64,000 nucleotides of DNA from a virus. Location: positions 16,882 to 80,881 of the IMG/VR virus record IMGVR_UViG_3300005529_000001. The stretch is one strand, 5' to 3'. Shown one piece after another: positions 6,558-46,810 of the stretch (the first letter of the stretch is position 1; every line of letters begins with the position of its first letter). Under the pieces are notes generated by a model. It was not told where the DNA came from. It saw only the letters and a list, made by a program, of their open reading frames with translations, and made no database searches. Both the position numbers and the translations under genes were made by a program.

Positions 6558-6752
6558 CTATACTTCTCGTCCGCGAGAGTCTACAAACCACTGGAACTGG
6601 TCGGCCCACTCGTTGAACCTCTTGAGAGAGATCCCCATCTTTCGAGCCCGTGTTCGCCAAAGACTCTTGGACGGAACGAACGAAAAGAACCCACGCTCGA
6701 CCTTGTGCCAAGCGCTGAAAGCTTCCCACCGCTCTTCAGCGGTCAGCTTCAT
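6558..6752 (-). CDS. hypothetical protein
   Basis: start MKLTAEERW inside ORF 6558..7121; upstream part of that ORF is Ser/Thr-rich noncoding-like. Confidence 0.3.
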   Translation of the reverse strand: MKLTAEERWEAFSAWHKVERGFFSFVPSKSLWRTRARKMGISLKRFNEWADQFQWFVDSRGREV

Positions 6753-8684: not shown

Positions 8685-8890
8685 CCTTTGATTCCATGGG
8701 GACGTTCGGTGTCTATCGCATAGTCTAGGTTCCGGCGAAGCTCGCTCAGGGCAGCCCGTGCGTTCGCATTAGGAACCGCCGCGTCGGGGACCCAGGCCAG
8801 CGCCGCCTTCAGTTGCTGTGCTTCCTCCACCGACATGTGGACGAACAGCTGCGGGCTGCGGGTCCAAGGGTTCTGGACGTGTGTCTTCAT
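8672..8890 (-). CDS. hypothetical protein
   Basis: 72 aa; ATGTGA-type overlap with ligase stop. Confidence 0.35.
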   Translation of the reverse strand: MKTHVQNPWTRSPQLFVHMSVEEAQQLKAALAWVPDAAVPNANARAALSELRRNLDYAIDTERPHGIKGCMP

Positions 8891-10320
8891 CAGTCCTCGC
8901 TCTTGTCTCGGGAGACCGCGGCGATGCGTTCGGCTTGTTCGGCAACACTAAGGCTCTTCCACCACTTCCACGTGGCGGGCACCGACTTGTCAACGTCGGC
9001 GTTGTCACGGACCCGGGTGTAGACCGGGAACCGCATCTTGCCGTCCTTCGTCAGCCCGTCCTCAGTGAGGGGATCGGGCTGAGCTTCGCACTCGGCGTTC
9101 TTGCCATTCCAGCTGTCAGCGCCCTCGGCTTGGATCTGAGCGCGGAGAGCATCGTTGAAGCCTCCCCCCACCCGGGTGATGATCTTGTTGGGAAGGACGA
9201 CGTAGAAACCACCGAACTGTCCTTCACGTTTGGTGCCCCGGCGGCCCTCGTAATTGCCGACGATGACGCCCTCGTAAGTGACGACCGGCTTCAGCTTCAG
9301 GATGTTCTTGGAACGCTTCCACTCGTAGGGGGTGTGCATCGTCTTTAGCATCACGCCCTCGTATCCCTCGTCCATGCACCTGGAGAAGTACTGTTTGAGG
9401 ACGTCTTCCTGGAAAGCCATGATGTAAGGAACCTGACGGATTGGTGACGTCTTTTCCTGCTCGAACTCGACACAGGCGAGGACAACCTCTCGGACGAGGT
9501 CGGCGCGCTCAGCGTAGGTCAGCTTCGTCTCCTGAGCTGCCCAGTCGGAGAACGGCATCGCGTCGAACACGTTGTAGTACATGTTCGAGTCGTCTTTCTG
9601 GTCTTCTTTGTGGACCCGGCCCGACATCATGACGCTGGATGACTCGTTCCAGTCAGCCGCCATCCCCTCACCGTCGAGGACGATATCATCGAGCTTCATC
9701 GCCTCTAACGTCGCGCGGATGCGGGGGAGCGACGGGAGCTCGGTGCCGTTGCGGGTGAACAGAGTCACCTTGCCACCGCGCTTGATGGCGATCAAGCGCA
9801 AGCCATCAAGCTTCGGCTCGACACGGACGGGATACGTTACCTTCTCGAGGATCTTGATGCCTTCGCCCTTGACGAACTCGCTCTTCAACGTCTTGGCCAG
9901 AGCGACCTCGAAGCTCTTGATGAGATCGGGCCACACTTCGTTGACAGTTGATTCCTGGACGCCGCAACGAAGATTTTTAAGAAGGATACGCTGGCACCAC
10001 TTCTGTTGGACTTCCGTCGCGCCACTCATGAGCGTCACGACGTAATCCTTGGCTGCGTTTCCCGTCAGGGTTCGGGTCGCAAGCATGCCGGTTATGCCGT
10101 CAAGAAACCTCTCGAGAACCCCATCATCGTTGAGAGGTTTGTTCGTCGGTTTTGGCATCTTGAACTTGGTGACGTAGTAGACCGTGTACGGGTCCTGGGC
10201 CGCGACGAACACCCTTTTCAGGAGTTCGTTCTTGCGAGCTGCTTCCAGGATGTCGATCTTGGCGAGCTTGCCTGAGGTGCTCTCGAGCTCTTCGAGGATG
10301 TCGATGACCGTTCGTGCCAT
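8890..10320 (-). CDS. ATP-dependent DNA ligase
   Basis: motif I EPKLDGLR (KxDG), EGVMLK, LKLK motif V, OB-fold-like C-terminus. Confidence 0.85.
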   Translation of the reverse strand: MARTVIDILEELESTSGKLAKIDILEAARKNELLKRVFVAAQDPYTVYYVTKFKMPKPTNKPLNDDGVLERFLDGITGMLATRTLTGNAAKDYVVTLMSGATEVQQKWCQRILLKNLRCGVQESTVNEVWPDLIKSFEVALAKTLKSEFVKGEGIKILEKVTYPVRVEPKLDGLRLIAIKRGGKVTLFTRNGTELPSLPRIRATLEAMKLDDIVLDGEGMAADWNESSSVMMSGRVHKEDQKDDSNMYYNVFDAMPFSDWAAQETKLTYAERADLVREVVLACVEFEQEKTSPIRQVPYIMAFQEDVLKQYFSRCMDEGYEGVMLKTMHTPYEWKRSKNILKLKPVVTYEGVIVGNYEGRRGTKREGQFGGFYVVLPNKIITRVGGGFNDALRAQIQAEGADSWNGKNAECEAQPDPLTEDGLTKDGKMRFPVYTRVRDNADVDKSVPATWKWWKSLSVAEQAERIAAVSRDKSED

Positions 10321-13046: not shown

Positions 13047-14255
13047 CTACTTCTTGGCCCCCTTGTCCTTGGCGGGTGCCTTGAAGATGCCGGGGATGTT
13101 CGGGATGATCCCGATCCCTGCCTCACCCATCGGGACGCCGAAGACATCGAGGATGTCCTTGGCACAGTACTTGTGGATGCTCTTGGCGAGCCCGATCTTG
13201 TCGATGCCGTGAGCTGTCAGCTTCGACCACAGCGAGATACGGTGCTCTTCGCCCAGCTCCCGCATGATGGCGGTGATGTTCTTGCCCTGCTGCTCGCTCA
13301 GCGTCTCCACGTTCTTGAAGACGTGGTCGCTGACCTTCTCGATGAGACCGTTGCGCTTCTCGTGCGACTGCTTGTCGAACTTGGCTTTGACTGAAGCGGT
13401 GTGGAAACGGTCGACCAGGTCCTCACCCGTTAGGTTGGTGTCGATGTTCTTGCAGTAGTCTCGGAACGCCGACGCTGCGTCGTTGCCGACGAAGACTCGG
13501 ACGATGTTCCAGAAGCGGGGGTCGAGTGGCTTCTCGCTGAGTCCCGCAGCAACCAGCGACTCGTTGACAAACTCCCAACCGCGAGGGGATGGCTGCTGGG
13601 TGTTCGGGTCAGCGCCCTTGGCCGGGTACAGCCAGATGTCTCGCTGCTCGACGAAGTCCGGGATGAAGTAGTGGAGGTTACCACCCTGCTCGGGGTCAGT
13701 GTTCCGTGCCCAGCTGCAAAACTCGGCGGGGGTGACCATCAGGTCCACGACCGCCAGTCGTGACAGCAGCGCCGGATCGATCTCGTTGACCTGGTACTGG
13801 GCGCCGGTGTTGATCGCGGCGTAGACCCTCGACAACGGGTGAAGCTTGTGACCGTTGAGCTCGTGGTCCAGGACGATCTGGAACGAAGCTTGCATGACCT
13901 CGGTCGTGCCTCGGTTCAGCTCGTCGAGGAAGATGACGTGAGGCTCGTCACACGCCATCATGTACCAGTCAGGCGGGTTGAACCTGGTGACGCGGCCGTC
14001 GGTGCTGGGCAAGCCGATCAGGTCGCCCTCACTCATCTGGCCGAGGCGGCGGTCAATGACCTGGTAACCGCCCTCCTTGATGAGGCCTTGCTCGAGGAGC
14101 TGCTTGCGGATGATAGCGCTGACCTGCCTGACAGACTGGCTCTTGCCCCTGCCGTGGTCTGCGCGGAGAAGCACTGACCGTCTGGCGGGCAGCAAGGCTG
14201 CCGTCTCCTTGAAGGTCGTCATTGACATCGTCGTCTCGGAACCGGTGCTTGCCAT
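13047..14255 (-). CDS. AAA+ ATPase, MoxR/CobS-like (AAA_5)
   Basis: P-loop HGRGKSQ, Walker B plus sensor VIFLDELNRGTTEVMQASFQIVLD typical of MoxR/CobS ATPases. Confidence 0.8.
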   Translation of the reverse strand: MASTGSETTMSMTTFKETAALLPARRSVLLRADHGRGKSQSVRQVSAIIRKQLLEQGLIKEGGYQVIDRRLGQMSEGDLIGLPSTDGRVTRFNPPDWYMMACDEPHVIFLDELNRGTTEVMQASFQIVLDHELNGHKLHPLSRVYAAINTGAQYQVNEIDPALLSRLAVVDLMVTPAEFCSWARNTDPEQGGNLHYFIPDFVEQRDIWLYPAKGADPNTQQPSPRGWEFVNESLVAAGLSEKPLDPRFWNIVRVFVGNDAASAFRDYCKNIDTNLTGEDLVDRFHTASVKAKFDKQSHEKRNGLIEKVSDHVFKNVETLSEQQGKNITAIMRELGEEHRISLWSKLTAHGIDKIGLAKSIHKYCAKDILDVFGVPMGEAGIGIIPNIPGIFKAPAKDKGAKK

Positions 14256-16347: not shown

Positions 16348-16482
16348 CTATCGACTTTGCTTTTCTTCTTGGAGTTGACGCTCTCGATGACCCGTAAGGT
16401 CGTCTTCCAACCGACGTAGGTGCCGGCGGCAAACGCGGCTCCGGCGACGACCCCGCCCGCAATGAAAACCCACTTGATCACG
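16348..16482 (-). CDS. small single-TM protein (45 aa)
   Basis: GTG start in GTGA overlap with sigma-factor stop, preceded by AAGGGG; VIKWVFIAGGVVAGAAFAAGTYVGW hydrophobic core; below 60 aa so absent from ORF track as such. Confidence 0.3.
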   Translation of the reverse strand, partial: RDQVGFHCGRGRRRSRVCRRHLRRLEDDLTGHRERQLQEEKQSR

Positions 16483-18730: not shown

Positions 18731-18804
18731 TGGTTGGGGCGGAGGGATTCGAACCCCCGTAAGCTGATTCAAAGTCAGCGGTCCTGCCGTTGGACGACAC
18801 CCCA
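18731..18804 (-). tRNA. tRNA-Gln (anticodon TTG)
   Basis: hand-folded cloverleaf; U1:A72 and 3-bp D stem typical of bacterial tRNA-Gln; T-loop GGTTCGAATCC; CCA encoded. Confidence 0.6.
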
Positions 18805-18832
18805 ATAGAGAGTAACAAGCTGCGTTCCGTGT

Positions 18833-18904
18833 TGGTTGCTCCGACTGGACTCGAACCAGTGGCCCCCGCTCCATGGTAACGGGTGTCCGCCGATATGCGG
18901 AGCA
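18833..18904 (-). tRNA. tRNA-like, anticodon undetermined
   Basis: good T arm (ACTGG/TTCGAGT/CCAGT) and acceptor stem with CCA, but D and anticodon arms do not fold canonically. Confidence 0.3.
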
Positions 18905-18911
18905 ATGCGTC

Positions 18912-19003
18912 ATGTCGAACGGAATCGAACCGTTGCCCGGGTAGCAGCCGCGAGCCTTCACAGGATTCTGTGTTTTTCCCAGTGCTTTCCTCGAACGACA
19001 TGA
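18912..19003 (-). tRNA. long tRNA-like element (type II-like, about 92 nt), undetermined
   Basis: acceptor CATGTCG/CGACATG and T arm AACGG/TTCGATT/CCGTT; internal arms unresolved. Confidence 0.25.
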
Positions 19004-19005
19004 CT

Positions 19006-19080
19006 TGGCAGGGGCGCAGGGACTCGAACCCTGGTAGCGAGTTTTGGAGGCTCGCGTCCTAGCCGCTGAACGACACCCCT
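19006..19080 (-). tRNA. tRNA-Trp (CCA)
   Basis: anticodon loop CTCCAAA; all four arms fold; CCA encoded. Confidence 0.6.
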
Positions 19081-19176
19081 GTAAAAAGCGCTGGTACATG
19101 GGACAACTTGCGTTGATCAGACGTATTGGTTGTTAGTCAGTCTTCCGACAACACTCACCATGTTTGCCAGCTACGG

Positions 19177-19249
19177 CACCGTCGACGGGAATCGAACCCG
19201 CATTTCCTGGTAGACAGCCAAGCGACCTAATCCATTGATCGACGACGGT
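19177..19249 (-). tRNA. tRNA-Asp (GTC)
   Basis: anticodon loop CTGTCTA; canonical arms; pyrimidine at 37 is unusual. Confidence 0.5.
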
Positions 19250-19332
19250 ATTGTATCGCTGTGAGAAGCTACCAACTCCTCGCGAGGCGGTGGGGCTCCC
19301 TTGCGCTGGGCGCCCATGTTACCTTGCAGCGA

Positions 19333-19406
19333 TGGCGGTCCCGAGGAGAATCGAACTCCCGTAATACGCTAGACAGGCGTACGTCCTACCACTGAACGAC
19401 GAGACC
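19333..19406 (-). tRNA. tRNA-Asp (GTC), second copy
   Basis: anticodon loop CTGTCTA with perfect TACGC/GCGTA stem; CCA encoded. Confidence 0.5.
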
Positions 19407-19494
19407 ATTGGCTCCTCGTTTACCTCGGCGCTTGCCGCGCGTTCTGGTGTACAGACCATGTTGGCATGGTATCGGACCTGGACTTGTTCCGGAG

Positions 19495-19566
19495 TGGAGC
19501 TCACGGGATTTGAACCCGTAACTTCCAGCTTGCAAAGCTGGCACTCTCCCGTTGAGTTAGAGCCCC
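19495..19566 (-). tRNA. tRNA-Ala (TGC)
   Basis: G3:U70 identity pair, A73, anticodon loop TTTGCAA. Confidence 0.65.
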
Positions 19567-19567
19567 G

Positions 19568-19649
19568 TGGAGCAGGAGGGGATCGGACCCTCAATCACGC
19601 AGCCTCCGCTGGCGAGCGGCCTTACCGAGTGACCATCCATTGCTGCCCC
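19568..19649 (-). tRNA. tRNA-like 82 nt with Ala-type acceptor (G3:U70, A73); anticodon undetermined
   Basis: acceptor GGGGCAG/CTGCTCC, T arm GAGGG/TCCGATC/CCCTC; middle does not fold as standard type I. Confidence 0.3.
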
Positions 19650-19773
19650 GTTGCAGCGTCGGTGGGTTACGTAGCAAATTGCATTCTATAGACGAGGAAC
19701 TTCAATGATAGAATTGCCACCGAGCCTAGCACTTCACCTTCTTGTCGGTCCTCTGCGACTGGTTACCGTGCAG

Positions 19774-19846
19774 TGGAGCACGCGGGACTCGAACCCGCCA
19801 CCTCAACGTTGCGAACGTTGCGCTCTCCCAGATGAGCTAGTGCCCC
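19774..19846 (-). tRNA. tRNA-Ala (CGC)
   Basis: G3:U70, A73, perfect anticodon stem CAACG/CGTTG, loop TTCGCAA. Confidence 0.65.
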
Positions 19847-19899
19847 GAAAACTCCGGCATGGTGACTGCTCTCGCAGACGATCCCGGAGGGATTATGGT

Positions 19900-19975
19900 T
19901 GGCAGCGGGGGATGGAGTTGGACCACCATTTCCAAGCCTTAGACGCCTGGCGACTTGCTGTTAGTCGACCCCGCT
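19900..19975 (-). tRNA. putative suppressor tRNA (anticodon CTA, amber)
   Basis: acceptor AGCGGGG/CCCCGCT plus G73 and encoded CCA; D stem GACT/AGTC; anticodon stem CCAGGC/GCTTGG (6 bp incl. G-U) with 7-nt loop GTCTAAG giving U33 and anticodon CUA; T loop TCCAACT non-canonical. Confidence 0.4.
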
Positions 19976-19976
19976 G

Positions 19977-20049
19977 TGGAGCTAGCGGGATTCGAACCCG
20001 CCACCTTCTGCATGCCATGCAGACGCTCTCCCAAATGAGCTATAGCCCC
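19977..20049 (-). tRNA. tRNA-Ala (GGC)
   Basis: G3:U70, A73, anticodon stem TCTGC/GCAGA, loop ATGGCAT. Confidence 0.65.
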
Positions 20050-20175
20050 GTGTGCCGGCGGTTACTCTGAGTCTTCACCTTCAGGTTTGCAGCAAAGCAC
20101 GATGAAACACGCACGCTGTGTGAATGCATATCGTAGTTGGTCGCTGGTCCTCCTATCCGCGCCGGCGGATCGGAT

Positions 20176-20250
20176 GGTGATCCTGGTGGGACTCGAACCC
20201 ACGAGTTTCTGCGAGTCATGCAGACGATCTGGCCGCTGATCTACAGGATC
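20176..20250 (-). tRNA. tRNA-Val (GAC)
   Basis: anticodon loop ATGACTC, perfect stems, CCA encoded. Confidence 0.55.
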
Positions 20251-20305
20251 GTGGCCGGTCTCTCCCGGCGGTCATAGCGGACGATGTGGTCCGCACGTTT
20301 TGTCT

Positions 20306-20503
20306 TTACCTTTCCTTCCGCTTGTTGCGGTACTGCCGTCGCCAACAGGGCCGGCACATGTATGCCATCCCCGCGAGCTGTGCAGCGATTTGACACCACT
20401 TACACATTCCGCGCCTCCTTTCGTATGAACGAAAGTGGCTACGGAGGTCTTGAATGATCCATGCAGTGACACCTCTTGTTTGGCAAGGTTTGGTTGCGGA
20501 CAC
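20306..20503 (-). CDS. small Cys-rich protein between tRNAs
   Basis: CKWCQ...CRPC motif; overlaps 3' end of adjacent tRNA by a few nt. Confidence 0.3.
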   Translation of the reverse strand: MSATKPCQTRGVTAWIIQDLRSHFRSYERRRGMCKWCQIAAQLAGMAYMCRPCWRRQYRNKRKER

Positions 20504-20567
20504 CAGGAGTCGAACCTAGCTGTTGCTGGGTTATGGGCCCAGCGTGTAAGCCGTTTCACTCGTCCGC
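20495..20567 (-). tRNA. tRNA-Met/Ile2-type (CAT)
   Basis: anticodon loop CCCATAA (C33 unusual) in perfect CTGGG/CCCAG stem; 3-bp D stem. Confidence 0.45.
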
Positions 20568-20569
20568 AG

Positions 20570-20642
20570 TGGGTCCGGAGGGCAATGATCCCACACGCTT
20601 CCGGTTAAAAGCCGGCTGCTCTGCCAATTGAGCTACGGACCC
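20570..20642 (-). tRNA. tRNA-Lys (TTT)
   Basis: anticodon loop CTTTTAA, perfect acceptor GGGTCCG/CGGACCC, D stem GCTC/GAGC; T loop ATCATTG non-canonical. Confidence 0.5.
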
Positions 20643-20652
20643 GTATTACATC

Positions 20653-20724
20653 GTTCACCTGCCAGGATTCGAACCTCCATGTCCGGCTTGAAAGGCCAGC
20701 ATCCTACCATTAGATGACGAGACC
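20653..20724 (-). pseudogene. tRNA-Glu(TTC)-like with non-pairing acceptor stem (probable tRNA pseudogene)
   Basis: anticodon arm CTGGC/CTTTCAA/GCCGG and D arm fold, T loop TTCGAAT present, but 5' GGTCTCG cannot pair with 3' CAGGTGA. Confidence 0.3.
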
Positions 20725-20753
20725 TTGCGATCTCGGGGTAAGTGGTTACTTGA

Positions 20754-20827
20754 TGGAGCCCAAGGCTGGAGTTGAACCAACGACCTCCCGGTTATTTACC
20801 GGTTGCTCTACACTGAGCTACTTGGGC
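20754..20827 (-). tRNA. tRNA, anticodon undetermined (loop TAAATAA lacks U33)
   Basis: acceptor GCCCAAG/CTTGGGC, D stem GCTC/GAGC, T arm GTTGG/TTCAACT/CCAGC, CCA encoded. Confidence 0.4.
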
Positions 20828-20828
20828 A

Positions 20829-20900
20829 TGGTGGAAAGGGCTGGACTCGTCCAGCACTTCCGGGTCAAGAACCCGGCGCTCTGCATTGAGCTACCTCTCC
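20829..20900 (-). tRNA. tRNA-Lys (CTT)-like with degenerate 6-nt T loop
   Basis: acceptor GGAGAGG/CCTTTCC, CCA encoded, perfect anticodon arm CCGGG/TTCTTGA/CCCGG; T loop ACGAGT. Confidence 0.35.
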
Positions 20901-21002
20901 GTGCTTGAATTCTATACATCGCCGGGCGTCGCCTGTTCACCTACACCAGATTCATAGTCTGGGTAACCGCGCTTCCGCGGCATGGGTTACTGGGCTTCGC
21001 AG

Positions 21003-21075
21003 CCTCTCTGTCCGGACTCGAACCGGAAGTCTCTACCTTCGCAGGGTAGCATGTTTTCCATTACACCACAGAGAG
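21003..21075 (-). tRNA. tRNA-Arg (GCG)
   Basis: anticodon loop CTGCGAA in CTACC/GGTAG stem; T loop TTCGAGT; 5' end overlaps last codons of CDS 21061..21537. Confidence 0.55.
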
Positions 21076-21537
21076 ATAATCGTTGAAATATTTGATGCCC
21101 TTTCGCTGGCCGTTCTTGGGTGGATCAAATCGAAGTGAGAAGCTTGTTGTGTGACCCTCGATCTCACTCATCGACACATATGCTACGACCTTTCGATCGA
21201 TGACATACAGTGCCATGTAGTCGATGTTTCGTGTTGTATATCGCAACCCGCTGCGACGGTTCGTGAAGTGTGACAGGCAGACCGTCCCTTTCTTGGATGA
21301 TTTCACTGTCTTCGCTTGAAGTTTGACAACTTGATTTTCTTTCACAGCGATGATGTCAATGTGACTGACGTCGCCATAGGGAAAGAAGACATCGTAACCT
21401 TGGTTCACTAGATCACTTGCAATTGCAAGTTCTCCTACGTTGCCTGTTGCTTTGGTGACCGACAGCATGATGCTATCGTAACGTGTCATCGTTGGACGTT
21501 CACATTCACGCTTCACTGGCGTCCCTGCACCGTGCAT
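21061..21537 (-). CDS. hypothetical protein, possible PD-(D/E)XK-type nuclease embedded in tRNA array
   Basis: 158 aa; GDVSHIDIIAVKEN...VKLQAK resembles D-x(n)-(D/E)xK nuclease core; location analogous to homing endonucleases in phage tRNA regions. Confidence 0.35.
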   Translation of the reverse strand: MHGAGTPVKRECERPTMTRYDSIMLSVTKATGNVGELAIASDLVNQGYDVFFPYGDVSHIDIIAVKENQVVKLQAKTVKSSKKGTVCLSHFTNRRSGLRYTTRNIDYMALYVIDRKVVAYVSMSEIEGHTTSFSLRFDPPKNGQRKGIKYFNDYLSVV

Positions 21538-21565
21538 CTAGGGGAATGTACGCGCCGAAACGCAG

Positions 21566-21621
21566 TCCCCCAGGTGGGAATTGAACCCACTCAAGTTTGA
21601 GCAGTTACTTGTCACGACGAG
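21566..21621 (-). pseudogene. tRNA 3' fragment (T arm plus 3' acceptor strand only)
   Basis: GTGGG/TTCAATT/CCCAC T arm followed by CTGGGGG-A but no matching 5' half within reach of next tRNA. Confidence 0.2.
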
Positions 21622-21695
21622 TGGGTCCAGTGGGAGTCGAACCCACATCTCTCTGCTTAAGAGGCAGGACTCTGAGCCAGTTGAGTTATGGACCC
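21622..21695 (-). tRNA. tRNA-Lys (CTT)
   Basis: acceptor GGGTCCA/TGGACCC, D stem ACTC/GAGT, anticodon loop CTCTTAA. Confidence 0.45.
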
Positions 21696-21747
21696 TTTGG
21701 CCAGGTGATGTCTGCTGAGAACGAGCGCCTGGCACGCTGCCGTCTCA

Positions 21748-21823
21748 TGGTTGGGGTGGCAGGACTCGAACCTGCGTATCGTAGGGTCAGAACCTACTGC
21801 TGTTGCCACTGAGCCACACCCCA
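21748..21823 (-). tRNA. tRNA-Gln (CTG)
   Basis: U1:A72, 3-bp D stem, perfect anticodon arm GTAGG/TTCTGAC/CCTAC, CCA encoded. Confidence 0.6.
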
Positions 21824-21824
21824 G

Positions 21825-21897
21825 CTGCTCGAGCAGGGATCGAACCTGCGATGGGCTAGTTAACAGCTAGCTGCCTTACCAACTTGGCTATCGAGCA
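21825..21897 (-). tRNA. tRNA-Asn (GTT)
   Basis: U1:A72 as in bacterial tRNA-Asn; anticodon arm GCTAG/CTGTTAA/CTAGC. Confidence 0.6.
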
Positions 21898-21961
21898 ATG
21901 GCGGTGACGGTCGCTTCGGCTAGGCCCAGATTCGGGCTGTCGGTCCACGAACAGTCACCAG

Positions 21962-22032
21962 CTCCAGCGGAGGGAATCGAACCCCCGTCGTCTCGGGAAA
22001 CAGCCGAGCGCACGCCATCGTGCTCCACTGGA
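21962..22032 (-). tRNA. tRNA-Asn (GTT)-like, second copy
   Basis: anticodon arm CTCGG/CTGTTTC/CCGAG; U1:A72; pyrimidine at 37. Confidence 0.4.
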
Positions 22033-22084
22033 AAACGGAACGCAGATTGTCAAAGATCAACTGAAAGCTTGCGCTGTCAGTCGG

Positions 22085-22167
22085 TGCGGCGTCAGGGAGT
22101 CGAACCCCGCGGGCCAAAAGGCACCTGGGTTACAGCCAGGTCCATCTCCGTAGTGGTCTACCACCGC
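22085..22167 (-). tRNA. tRNA-Tyr (GTA), long variable arm
   Basis: anticodon arm CCTGG/CTGTAAC/CCAGG; extra arm GCC-TTTT-GGC; 83 nt; acceptor 6 of 7 bp. Confidence 0.5.
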
Positions 22168-22382
22168 ATGTTATGTCGTGTGCTTAAACGTCGTTTGCCG
22201 AGGAACTTTCTCTTCCTCGGCAACTCTGAGTGGCTTCTCTTACCCCTCTTCATCGCTCCGGAAGCTCGGAGCAATGGGCGCTCCGATCAAATCGTGGTCT
22301 TATCGTTGGCATATGCCTGCCAACGCTTCTGATTCGCTTTGTTGATTTGGGCTTGGGTATTCATGATCGTCTTTCGACTTCG

Positions 22383-22457
22383 TCGGACCGAGTGGAATTG
22401 AACCACCGACCTCCTGCTTATCAGACAAGCGCTCTAAACCAACTGAGCTACGGTCCG
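22383..22457 (-). tRNA. tRNA-Ile (GAT)
   Basis: anticodon loop CTGATAA and GAGGTCGGTGGTTCAATTCCAC closely resemble bacterial tRNA-Ile. Confidence 0.6.
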
Positions 22458-33383: not shown

Positions 33384-34093
33384 CGGGTCTCAAGAAATCG
33401 AGCGTAAGGCAATCCCGCGAGACCGTAAGAGCCAACAGCGTACGCGTCTGTCGCCTCGACCAGCAACGTCTCACCCTGCGCGGTGACGCCCATGTCGAGG
33501 CAGAACGCAGCATTCATCTTGCCCTTGCAACACTTGAGTGCTTTGTTATAGGTGCTCTTGTTGAGCGAGGTGAACGCGTCACCGCGGTAGTGCCGGACGC
33601 CGACGGGCTGGTCGTGCTTGAAGAAGCAACGGTATTCGCTCACAAACTCGATCTCATCGCTGACAAAGCAGGGAGTCTCTTCCGGGTATGCAGCAACCGC
33701 AAGCCTCGATCGCGGGTCAAGCGGATCAAAGACGAAACCCCCGAACAGCTTCTGTTGGACGGGCTTGACGAACTTGCGAGCGACAAGGCTCCTGACTCCT
33801 GCCAACGTCATGCGCTCGATCTTCCGTCCCAACATCCAGTCGAGGTGTTCGGGATAATCAACGGGTGTTGGCACCGGTTTGCCTAGCAACTTCAATGCAT
33901 CCCAGACGTCACCCAGGTTGCCGCAGACGATGACACTCGGGCCGAGGTCAGGCATGTTCTCAAGGTTCAGGTCACCGAACCCGTAGAACGGGACCACAGG
34001 GATCCCCTGGATGTGGAAGCCCTCGGCCGCAGCATAGGTGTTGGCGTTGTCCGGGATGTTCTCACGGAAACGGATGTAAGCCTTGTCAAGCAT
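33362..34093 (-). CDS. ATP-grasp-like protein
   Basis: 243 aa; EIEFVSEYRCFF resembles ATP-grasp E-x-EYR segment; low confidence without search. Confidence 0.35.
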   Translation of the reverse strand: MLDKAYIRFRENIPDNANTYAAAEGFHIQGIPVVPFYGFGDLNLENMPDLGPSVIVCGNLGDVWDALKLLGKPVPTPVDYPEHLDWMLGRKIERMTLAGVRSLVARKFVKPVQQKLFGGFVFDPLDPRSRLAVAAYPEETPCFVSDEIEFVSEYRCFFKHDQPVGVRHYRGDAFTSLNKSTYNKALKCCKGKMNAAFCLDMGVTAQGETLLVEATDAYAVGSYGLAGLPYARFLETRWKELAR

Positions 34094-35006
34094 TTGCGTG
34101 CTGCTCCACGAGCTTCAAACCCTCAGCGACATAGTAATCAACAGGCTGGTCTTTCTGAAGGAGACCCGCCTTCATCATCTCTTCCAACTCGTCTCTGACC
34201 GCGTTGCACCACGACCCAGGTTTGGTCGCCACCTTCGACAAGATGATTCCCATCGTGCCCTTCGGCAGCTTGGGCGAGTTGTCATCAGCGTAGACCTGCT
34301 TGACCCTGACTTCTAGTTCAGCAGCACGAGCGAGTGCCCGAGCGCGCTTGTCAGGACGCTTGGTCGTCAGGTCAGCGCGGGACAGCGCCATCAGCCTCTC
34401 AAAGTTGCGGACGTCACCGATGTCGACGAGCAGTCTCCTGACCCCTGAGTCACCCCACGACTTCTTGTAAGCCGCGGGTCGGAGGTGGTTCAGCACCAGA
34501 GCCCTGACGGTCGTGAACAAGCTGTGGTCGTTTCTGAACAGGTCAAGCCGGTGATCGATGCGATCCAACATCCTTGCCCCGACAACGTCATGCTGGTGGA
34601 ACGTCACCCGACCATTGACGAATGCACGCGTCCGAGCCTTGCCGATGTCATGCATCAACGCGCCCCATCGCAGTTCAAGCTGAGGTGGCACCCCAGCGAC
34701 GACCTGCTTGGTGTGATCCCAAACGTCCTTGTGAAGTGCCGAACGCGGGTCTTCACCCAAACCCTTCATCTCCCCGATCTCGGGGAATAACGCTTCGAGA
34801 CAGCCCGTCTTCAGCAACAGCTCAAGCCCATCAGCTGGGCGTGAGCCGCAGAGGATCTGATCAAGGAGCTTGCGGACGGTCAGCGGGTTGCGACGCCACA
34901 GGTCTTCGAACTCACCGGGAGAAAAGACTCGTGGGACAAACAAATCATCAGGAGCGCCCGTGTTGGAGCCCCTAACACACAACTCTAGGAGTTCGATCGG
35001 ATCCAT
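34086..35006 (-). CDS. HD-domain phosphohydrolase (Cca C-terminal-like)
   Basis: LHKDVWDH...GALMHDIGKA HD motif arrangement as in CCA-enzyme HD domain; no nucleotidyltransferase head. Confidence 0.65.
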   Translation of the reverse strand: MDPIELLELCVRGSNTGAPDDLFVPRVFSPGEFEDLWRRNPLTVRKLLDQILCGSRPADGLELLLKTGCLEALFPEIGEMKGLGEDPRSALHKDVWDHTKQVVAGVPPQLELRWGALMHDIGKARTRAFVNGRVTFHQHDVVGARMLDRIDHRLDLFRNDHSLFTTVRALVLNHLRPAAYKKSWGDSGVRRLLVDIGDVRNFERLMALSRADLTTKRPDKRARALARAAELEVRVKQVYADDNSPKLPKGTMGIILSKVATKPGSWCNAVRDELEEMMKAGLLQKDQPVDYYVAEGLKLVEQHANA

Positions 35007-45147: not shown

Positions 45148-45621
45148 GGCGAGATCCTACTTCTCGTGACGACGCTTTTTCACAGGCGGGCCGAGGACCT
45201 CTCTCCGGCCTATCGCTGATGAATCACTGGTCCAGGGCTGCCACATCATGTGGACAACAGCGTTAACGAGACCGACGATGACACCGAACCTGGGCATAAC
45301 ACCGCTCGTCTCGGGGTACCAGATGACCAGGGTGCCCGGAGCGAGGGGACCTTCAAGGCTGATGTGGCGTCGGTCGGAAAACAACCCGTCGGACAACCGG
45401 TGGGTCGCGAAGTCCATCTCAGTTGACCTGATAAAGATCGGCAGAGGGAACCCAACCAAACTGGGTACGGGACGTCAGCAACATCACGTAACCGTGGCTT
45501 GCAGCGACAACAAGGACCATGTCATTGGGCATGACCCTGCCACAACGAAAGGCGTCAGCATCCAGGCTGGAGAAAAGCTGCCGCGAGAACTTGTGGGTAT
45601 AGACGGCCAAGTCCCCGGGTT

Positions 45622-46422: not shown

Positions 46423-46810
46423 CTAGTAGTCCAGCTTGGTTGGCTCACTGGGAGCCCCCTCCTGTTGGTCGCCGTGGAGCAGCCAGCGACCCAAGCGCTG
46501 CAGCTGGGCCCAGGCGAAGGAAACGAGCACCCCGGCGAAGAACACCGGCGAGTAGGACACCGCCATCGCTCGCTTGCGCCAGCCCCAGCCCTTGGCACGC
46601 CGCCAGCCGACCCCGGGATCGAGAGCGATGCCCGAGAAGGCATAGCTGATGAAACTGATGATGAAAGCGAAGACGCAGGGCATCACCCAGCTGGGACCAC
46701 GGTGGAGCTGGGCCAGGCGGACCGCGACGAACAGCGGGGTGCCCAGGCACGCGAACGGGCCCGCGGCGACGCCGAACAGGAAGACGAAGCGTCTCCAGAT
46801 GGGTTCCATC
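46423..46810 (-). CDS. membrane protein
   Basis: start MEPIWRRF, 3-4 TM helices. Confidence 0.35.

Follow-up and report, generated by a model that had tools for sequence, protein, structure and literature searches.

A tRNA gene of 76 nt with the anticodon CUA lies on the minus strand at positions 19900-19975 of the window, by which we mean the whole stretch of 64,000 nucleotides analysed here, and was assigned with ARAGORN, Rfam, secondary-structure prediction and comparison with homologues. It belongs to a tRNA array on the same strand (18731-22457) that comprises at least 22 tRNA genes, 20 of them called by ARAGORN and two added by Rfam (20829-20900 and 20654-20720). The window corresponds to bases 77364-141363, reverse strand, of contig k141_1055159 from ENA assembly ERZ27279688, which is 369,506 bp long. 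The same sequence is found in the Logan assembly of SRR5581483, with 100% identity over 17 kb; the ENA and Logan assemblies may share the same reads. The phage is an uncultured, metagenomic jumbo phage of 369.5 kb. Our reading covered ~94 kb of the contig, namely the window and its flanks L234 and L235, which extend ~10 kb past each end. The structural and lysis genes lie outside this span, beyond which ~275 kb (~75%) of the contig extends.

The proteins encoded in the window form the set of a large virulent phage and include an ATP-dependent DNA ligase, an RNA ligase, a sigma-70-like factor, a dNMP kinase and an AAA ATPase. Our own codon-usage gene model yielded 146 genes, of which 140 are on the minus strand, as are the tRNAs. 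The source genome has a GC content of 57-65%, which climbs from ~57% to 62-65% near 40 kb; the region from there onwards (window ~40000-64000 and L235) carries dozens of genes of 60-110 residues on one strand, whose function is unassigned. No relatives among cultured phages were retrieved by megablast of the array or by tblastn of the ligase, the phrog_2087 protein and the sigma factor, and blastn of the CUA tRNA yielded no similar sequence among cultured phages. A second strain from the same sample (L168; contig 1846360 of Logan SRR5581483), whose contig begins within the sigma gene, has an identical DNA ligase and a different content of small genes nearby.

The CUA tRNA gene and its array

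ARAGORN placed the tRNA at exactly 19900-19975 on the minus strand, with cta at position 34; the label "tRNA-Pyl" that it attached is merely its name for any CUA anticodon. Window coordinates follow as 19976 minus the tRNA position. Read from 5' to 3', the acceptor stem AGCGGGG/CCCCGCU has seven pairs, beginning with A1-U72, and is followed by the bases U and C. The D stem GACU/AGUC, possibly with a fifth pair C9-G25, encloses the 7-nt loop AACAGCA, which has no GG and hence no G18-G19. After a single G comes the anticodon arm (19932-19950, minus strand), with a 6-bp stem CCAGGC/GCUUGG that includes one G-U pair and a 7-nt loop GUCUAAG, in which G32, U33, A37 and G38 surround the anticodon C34 U35 A36 (19940-19942, minus strand; TAG on the plus strand, at position 34 according to ARAGORN). 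A CUA anticodon within seven loop nucleotides, preceded by U33 and followed by a purine at 37, is what an amber-suppressor loop has; the loop carries purines at both 32 and 38. The variable loop AAAU has 4 nt, and the 5-bp T stem GGUGG/CCAUC closes the T loop UCCAACU (19916-19922, minus strand), in which U54 and A58 are retained and C55 replaces the usual U/Psi55. The sequence ends with the discriminator G73 and a genomically encoded CCA (19900-19903, minus strand).

The minimum free energy fold is a cloverleaf of -31.3 kcal/mol (z = -2.9), matched by one in 200 shuffled sequences. Rfam model RF00005 scored 35.9 bits on the isolated 91-nt region (gathering score 29; E = 1e-6) and missed the gene during a 5.5-kb scan owing to its speed filters; by this model, the CUA tRNA is the second weakest of the array. 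The Rfam alignment gives the anticodon stem 5 bp and places the loop-closing C-G in an enlarged loop. The locus is thus a genuine tRNA gene, but a deviant one. The earlier note had described the 76-nt gene with its paired acceptor stem, encoded CCA and D stem GACT/AGTC, all of which is correct on the minus strand. The CUA anticodon that it read after U33 is the one called at the same locus by ARAGORN, the check it had proposed, and sequence and fold agree with its account of a 6-bp anticodon stem with a G-U pair and a non-canonical T loop, TCCAACT.

The 5' end of the CUA tRNA abuts tRNA-Ala(GGC) (19976-20049, minus strand) with zero spacer, so that an RNase P cut of the former would set the 3' trailer of the latter. 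The downstream neighbour is tRNA-Ala(CGC) (19773-19846, minus strand), which is 100% identical to its counterpart in the related contig L001. The array also holds a canonical tRNA-Trp(CCA) (19006-19080, minus strand; Rfam 50.4 bits; 91% identical to L001 7746-7820), which makes a second Trp-type gene redundant and has A1-U72 and G73 in common with the CUA tRNA. Neither promoter-like nor terminator-like sites were found on the array strand inside the array, which, together with its co-orientation with the flanking genes, would fit co-transcription. About half of the array tRNAs encode CCA. The 3' ends of the others could be finished by an HD-domain protein (34086-35006, minus strand; Pfam HD and PolyA_pol_RNAbd; phrog_2244), to judge from its weak matches to the tRNA nucleotidyltransferase (CCA-adding) family. 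Also near the arrays are an RNA ligase (PF09414; 4951-5823, minus strand) and the ATP-dependent DNA ligase (8890-10320, minus strand); with the HD-domain protein, they form a set that would suit tRNA repair after anticodon-nuclease attack.

Further features of the arrays were recorded. A gene for a PD-(D/E)XK endonuclease (PF11645; 21061-21537, minus strand), which may be of the homing type, sits within the array and shares some bases with the end of tRNA-Arg(GCG). At 18833-18926 (minus strand), a tRNA-like gene of 94 nt, whose T arm is normal and whose CCA is encoded, was given a 2-base "anticodon" by ARAGORN; at 93% identity to L001 7901-7992 it is strongly conserved, though not a normal tRNA. 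On the same strand, the gene at 20829-20900 is Lys(CUU)-like, has a T loop of 6 nt, reaches 58 bits with Rfam and is missed by ARAGORN; an "Ile(AAU)" call (20754-20827) has the loop UAAAUAA with A at position 33; and 20654-20720 matches Rfam weakly, at 26.9 bits. A second array, situated 1.7-6.8 kb past the window start (L234 12123-17188), contains 22 tRNA genes for Glu, Pro (four), Val, Thr (three), His (two), Phe (two), Cys, Gly, Leu (four), Arg and Met. Together, the two arrays provide at least 44 tRNAs for nearly all amino acids, among which no Ser tRNA was seen.

Homologous tRNAs in related phages

Searching IMG/VR with the sigma factor returned 80 loci, many of them on contigs of 100-340 kb, and the closest relative was L001, with 82% amino-acid identity in this protein. 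A metagenome scan with the same query gave mostly bacterial sigma-70 genes and one useful relative, the truncated contig L082. In L001, the array order Val(GAC)-Ala(GGC)-X-Ala(CGC) matches that of the window, and X (6585-6659), which was called as tRNA-Trp with the anticodon CCA, occupies the array position of the CUA tRNA. Like the latter, X follows tRNA-Ala(GGC) without a spacer and ends in G73-CCA. The X homologues of L001 and L008 adopt the cloverleaf of the CUA tRNA: their anticodon stems have 6 bp and their variable loops 4 nt, and the discriminator is G73. A canonical tRNA-Trp is kept by both the window and L001.

The anticodon stems differ by compensatory changes, with CCGAGC/GCUCGG in L001, CUCAGC/GCUGAG in L008 and CCAGGC/GCUUGG in the window. 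Across these homologues, which are three sequences only, all 22 pairs are formed (66 of 66 pair cells) and eight of the 22 are compensatory, while shuffled and slid controls remained far below this level of pairing and covariation. Pairs kept in this manner indicate selection on the structure of the RNA, as opposed to the decay of a pseudogene. The anticodon loop, AUCCAAC, is identical in L001 and L008 though their stems differ, which suggests that the family of X decodes UGG in these phages. From this loop, that of the CUA tRNA departs at three of seven positions (A32G, C35U and C38G). Overall, the CUA tRNA and X of L001 are 71% identical, as against 93% and 100% for the two Ala tRNAs on either side; the CUA tRNA begins with the pair A1-U72, its homologues in L001 and L008 with U1-A72. 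The CUA tRNA aligns poorly with the body of the canonical tRNA-Trp.

Among ~450 tRNAs called across the loci of the clade, CUA occurs once, and no lineage but this one showed it. A "tta" call in L004 was discarded as a stop decoder, since it folds with 7 stem pairs around a loop of only 3 nt, which makes it an implausible decoder. A covariance model trained on the window, L001 and L008 homologues retrieved weaker relatives in L018 and L004, both with 6-nt anticodon loops. Across the related arrays L001-L031 there are ~20 well-folded tRNA-like genes with anticodon loops of 6 or 8 nt (e.g. L018 3792-3865, L004 3579-3653, L014 1803-1876 and 2560-2636, and L011 5881-5957), several of them in a conserved slot between tRNA-Tyr and tRNA-Asn.

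Wider searches added little to this set. The exact 19-mer of the CUA anticodon arm had no match in IMG/VR, where degenerate patterns of the CUA and CCA forms recovered only known contigs, one duplicate (L210) and the unrelated L162; tRNA-Ala(CGC) as a bait led to the L001 contig only. In bacterial genomes, at least 120 chance matches to the anticodon-arm pattern were listed, none of which was tRNA-like by the covariance model. L162 (IMGVR_UViG_3300028800_000109) is an unrelated viral contig of 65% GC with two CUA tRNAs (584-657 and 1052-1126) beside a tRNA-Ser, one of which scores 48 bits with Rfam and combines an anticodon stem of 6 bp with a variable loop of 4 nt.

Stop codons and a phage-encoded release factor

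According to our own codon-usage gene model, which assumes the standard code and is dense over the ~94 kb read, the 146 window genes end in TGA (116), TAA (16) or TAG (14). TAG thus serves as a stop here, as the earlier note had remarked for the AAA ATPase, whose gene (13047-14255, minus strand) does end in TAG. With the same model, TAG accounts for 9-13% of gene ends in the window and both flanks versus 11% in L001, where there is no CUA tRNA, and no depletion of TAG as a terminator was detected in this comparison. Treating TAG as a sense codon did not improve the coverage of the window by open reading frames.

The earlier note had also advised inspecting conserved genes for in-frame TAG codons. 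Within the ~94 kb of window, L234 and L235, none was supported by coding signal or homology in conserved phage genes. Candidates were defined as every spot on the gene strand with coding-like sequence open in frame past a TAG, and all four can be explained as ordinary gene boundaries, three of them clearly. Past the TAG at 45159, the next gene has its own AGGA-N7-ATG; the TAG at 46425 is followed by an Arg/Pro-rich spacer of 51 codons that is not coding-like and precedes the real Met start; and at 16350 the homology in relatives starts at a Met past the TAG. For the fourth, at L235 6707, the boundary is a probable one: an ATG lies three codons downstream, but its Shine-Dalgarno match is short-spaced. 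A tblastn search of peptides across every TAG against all relatives produced no in-frame case on the gene strand; many of its hits were off-frame or antisense echoes of conserved genes. The genetic code is standard in the ~94 kb read of the 369.5 kb, and with a standard code in this quarter of the genome, the effect of the CUA tRNA would be limited readthrough and not the reassignment of TAG. From the earlier interpretation, the CUA tRNA within the array and its non-canonical stem and T loop are supported, and the link to stop-codon recoding found no support in the ~94 kb read, given the TAG share of 9-13%, the lack of in-frame TAG and the presence of an RF1-like gene. The CUA tRNA may act on a subset of genes, which was the fallback of that note; the structural and lysis genes are outside the span read.

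This release-factor gene (L234 17701-18373) is found directly after the second array, ~7.3-8 kb past the window start. It consists of two open reading frames that join by a +1 shift at GGAGG-UGU-CUU-UGA, which has the form GGAGG-N3-CUU-UGA of the frameshift motif in bacterial prfB. The site is at codon 37 of a phage protein without domain 1, and thus in another protein region than in prfB. The joined protein of 223 residues scores 208 bits with the NCBIfam profile for RF1, 126 with that for RF2 and 99 with that for PrfH. Its sequence includes GGQ, and its recognition loop, HRWQRIPPTEKRGRVQTS, is of the PxT type. By profile score and PxT loop, the protein is predicted to be RF1-like. RF1-type factors terminate at UAG, and such a factor would compete with a UAG-reading tRNA, which argues against efficient genome-wide suppression. 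A gene for RF2, as an accessory that would favour readthrough, was not found, the release factor encountered being of the RF1 type. Should the phage factor read UAG and UAA, its synthesis would respond to the activity of RF2 and not to its own.

Seven related phage contigs (L236-L242), that of L001 among them, have conserved both the gene and the frameshift site, and the recognition loop of the factor does not differ between phages that have the CUA tRNA and those that lack it. Public data contain more than 100 clusters of proteins of this type lacking domain 1, and the huge-phage records that match the gene are unannotated and just 42-47% identical. Our literature search returned no description of a frameshifted, RF1-like phage gene without domain 1.

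Origin and possible role of the CUA tRNA

The explanation that we prefer, with a probability of about one half, is that the gene, kept by selection, is the CUA-anticodon form of a redundant, non-canonical accessory tRNA of the Trp type that this group of jumbo phages carries, and gives limited readthrough of UAG. A redundant tRNA copy that changes one anticodon base is the textbook route to a suppressor, and the spare copy would here have been free to change C35 to U. The tRNA would be transcribed with the array and then released by RNase P and 3' processing. It would probably be charged by a host synthetase, with TrpRS favoured on account of the A1-U72 and G73 common to the canonical tRNA-Trp of the phage; in a host that possesses GlnRS, this enzyme could charge it instead, as happens to the amber suppressor derived from E. 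coli tRNA-Trp. Pairing with UAG would give some amber readthrough in competition with RF1-type termination, including that by the RF1-like factor of the phage itself. The retention of U33, C34, A36 and A37 in the loop counts for decoding, and the 7-nt loop, the encoded CCA, the matching gene order and the shared 6-bp stem count for an amber-reading tRNA, as does the occurrence of a CUA tRNA with a 6-bp anticodon stem in the unrelated L162. The deviant body, with no G18-G19, with C55, with purines at 32 and 38 and with a low Rfam score, counts against it, and so does the uniqueness of CUA among the tRNAs of the clade. The three loop bases that differ from the relatives could reflect relaxed constraint, and the 6-nt loops of the distant homologues, which would be unable to decode normally, are a further point against decoding. 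Finally, TAG stops are not depleted, no gene in the ~94 kb needs UAG readthrough, and the RF1-like factor has the same recognition loop as in relatives without a CUA tRNA, all of which weighs on the same side.

The main rival is a non-decoding or drifting copy, that is, a tRNA-shaped RNA whose anticodon is not selected for decoding, so that a redundant Trp-type copy is kept for its shape and CUA is neutral. We regard this as possible, if doubtful. Such an RNA might act as punctuation when the abutting tRNA-Ala genes are processed by RNase P and at their 3' ends, and the zero spacer to tRNA-Ala(GGC) in both the window and L001 speaks for this, or it might act as a decoy or substitute for host tRNAs targeted by defence nucleases. 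The variation of the loop among homologues (CCA in L001 and L008, CUA in the window, 6 nt in L018 and L004) would suit a copy kept for its shape, as would the ~20 tRNA-like genes with 6- or 8-nt loops in related arrays, the degenerate D/T elbow, the undepleted TAG stops and the retained RF1-like gene. Also in its favour, two reports describe phage tRNAs with altered anticodon loops that evade host anticodon nucleases (PMC10264068; PMC11555353). The loop, however, has exactly 7 nt and keeps U33 and A37, the CCA is encoded, and the intact acceptor stem and discriminator match those of the canonical tRNA-Trp. Moreover, conservation of the whole loop between L001 and L008 suggests that the family decodes at least in those phages. 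We also know of no defence nuclease specific for such a tRNA, which counts against this explanation.

Recoding of the code-15 kind, in which late, structural or lysis genes elsewhere in the genome would contain TAG codons in frame, decoded only after expression of the array, appears unlikely. It draws on the fact that every recognisable structural gene falls within the ~275 kb beyond the span read, and on known recoded phages, in which in-frame stops concentrate in structural and lysis genes and the replication genes often follow the standard code (10.1101/2021.08.26.457843). A preprint proposes that recoding begins with stop-codon depletion in phages of low GC content, and TAG-recoded phages, in some cases, are reported with RF2 genes (10.1101/2021.08.26.457843); this genome is GC-rich, at 57-65%, and its release factor is of the RF1 type, not RF2. 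Further evidence against recoding is that TAG is the normal stop of 9-13% of the genes over ~94 kb, where no in-frame TAG has support from coding signal or homology, and that the closest relative, L001, is devoid of a CUA tRNA. A related proposal, which we consider improbable, is a tunable UAG switch, in which the CUA tRNA, with its lengthened anticodon stem and its origin in a spare Trp-type tRNA, would compete with the RF1-type factor without domain 1. Their balance would determine how far certain genes ended or interrupted by amber codons are read through in the unseen three quarters of the genome, at an early, GC-rich stage towards TAG recoding. Synthesis of the factor would depend on the +1 frameshift at CUU UGA and hence respond to RF2 activity.

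tRNA-Pyl combines a CUA anticodon with a 6-bp anticodon stem, a short variable loop of 3 nt, a D loop of 5 nt, G73 and G1-C72, and has neither G18-G19 nor T-Psi-C. Of these features, the tRNA studied here shares the anticodon, the 6-bp stem, a short variable loop, the lack of GG and of T-Psi-C, and G73; its acceptor and D stems may likewise be separated by one base only. That it is of the pyrrolysine type, or orthogonal in some other way, and served by a dedicated phage or host synthetase, is nevertheless barely credible. In L001 the counterpart has the anticodon CCA, and its acceptor and D stems stand two bases apart; the CUA tRNA opens with A1-U72 instead of G1-C72, and its variable and D loops have 4 and 7 nt. 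Among the gene calls of the ~94 kb there is no synthetase-like Pfam hit, nor any hit resembling pylS or pylBCD. With the CCA homologues, the A1-U72 pair, the loop sizes and the lack of a synthetase gene nearby, tRNA-Pyl identity was rejected, and the likeness is taken as resemblance only.

If the gene is a spare Trp-type tRNA turned amber reader, as we favour, it bears on how recoding starts. Suppressor tRNAs are the proposed engine of phage recoding, and their first acquisition by a phage with the standard code has mostly been inferred. The locus would capture this acquisition step, as the same accessory tRNA gene has CCA in one and CUA in the other of two close jumbo phages. An active CUA tRNA would mean that a suppressor is tolerated before any recoding and without low GC; an inactive one would serve as a warning that an anticodon call by itself is no ground for inferring suppression or recoding.

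Comparison with known suppressors and stop-codon decoders

A close parallel is su7/supU of E. coli, a tRNA-Trp amber suppressor with its anticodon changed from CCA to CUA and charged largely with Gln. In both cases, one change of C35 to U affects a Trp-type tRNA with A1-U72 and G73, and it arises in a dispensable copy while a normal tRNA-Trp remains. The CUA tRNA has CCA homologues, as well as the A1-U72 and G73 of su7, although L001 and L008 themselves have U1-A72. It differs in being a natural phage gene instead of a laboratory mutant, in two more loop positions that depart from the CCA relatives, and in a body that, with its 6-bp anticodon stem, degenerate D/T elbow and G32/G38, is far from the otherwise canonical tRNA-Trp of su7. 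By analogy with su7, UAG would be expected to specify Gln, Trp or both. Host enzymes have been described that charge TAG suppressors with Gln, and a TGA suppressor tRNA is known from a relative of recoded phages that itself uses the standard code (10.1101/2021.08.26.457843).

The code-15 phages that recode TAG (crAss-like, Lak and others) likewise encode a CUA tRNA and would depend on host synthetases (10.1101/2021.08.26.457843). Unlike in these, TAG is kept as a stop here, with no in-frame TAG in ~94 kb, a GC-rich genome and a gene for an RF1-type factor. Ralstonia jumbo phage RsoM2USA (MG752970), which is cultured and has a genome of ~340 kb, carries one CUA tRNA among ~44 tRNA genes, with no recoding reported (PMC8504454). 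Its GC content is 41% as opposed to 57-65% here, blastn showed no similarity, and the likeness concerns the annotated anticodon. tRNA-Pyl and tRNA-Sec are natural stop-codon decoders with 6-bp anticodon stems. The CUA tRNA resembles both in its lengthened anticodon stem and reduced interactions between the D and T loops, and tRNA-Pyl also in CUA and G73; it differs from them in having homologues with CCA, no dedicated synthetase nearby, and another first pair and other loop sizes. Phage CUA tRNAs as such were already known, both from TAG-recoded phages and by annotation from RsoM2USA. Two features stand out here: the visible ancestry, with CCA at the same locus of a sister genome, and the unexpected setting of a GC-rich phage that still uses TAG as a stop and carries an RF1-type gene.
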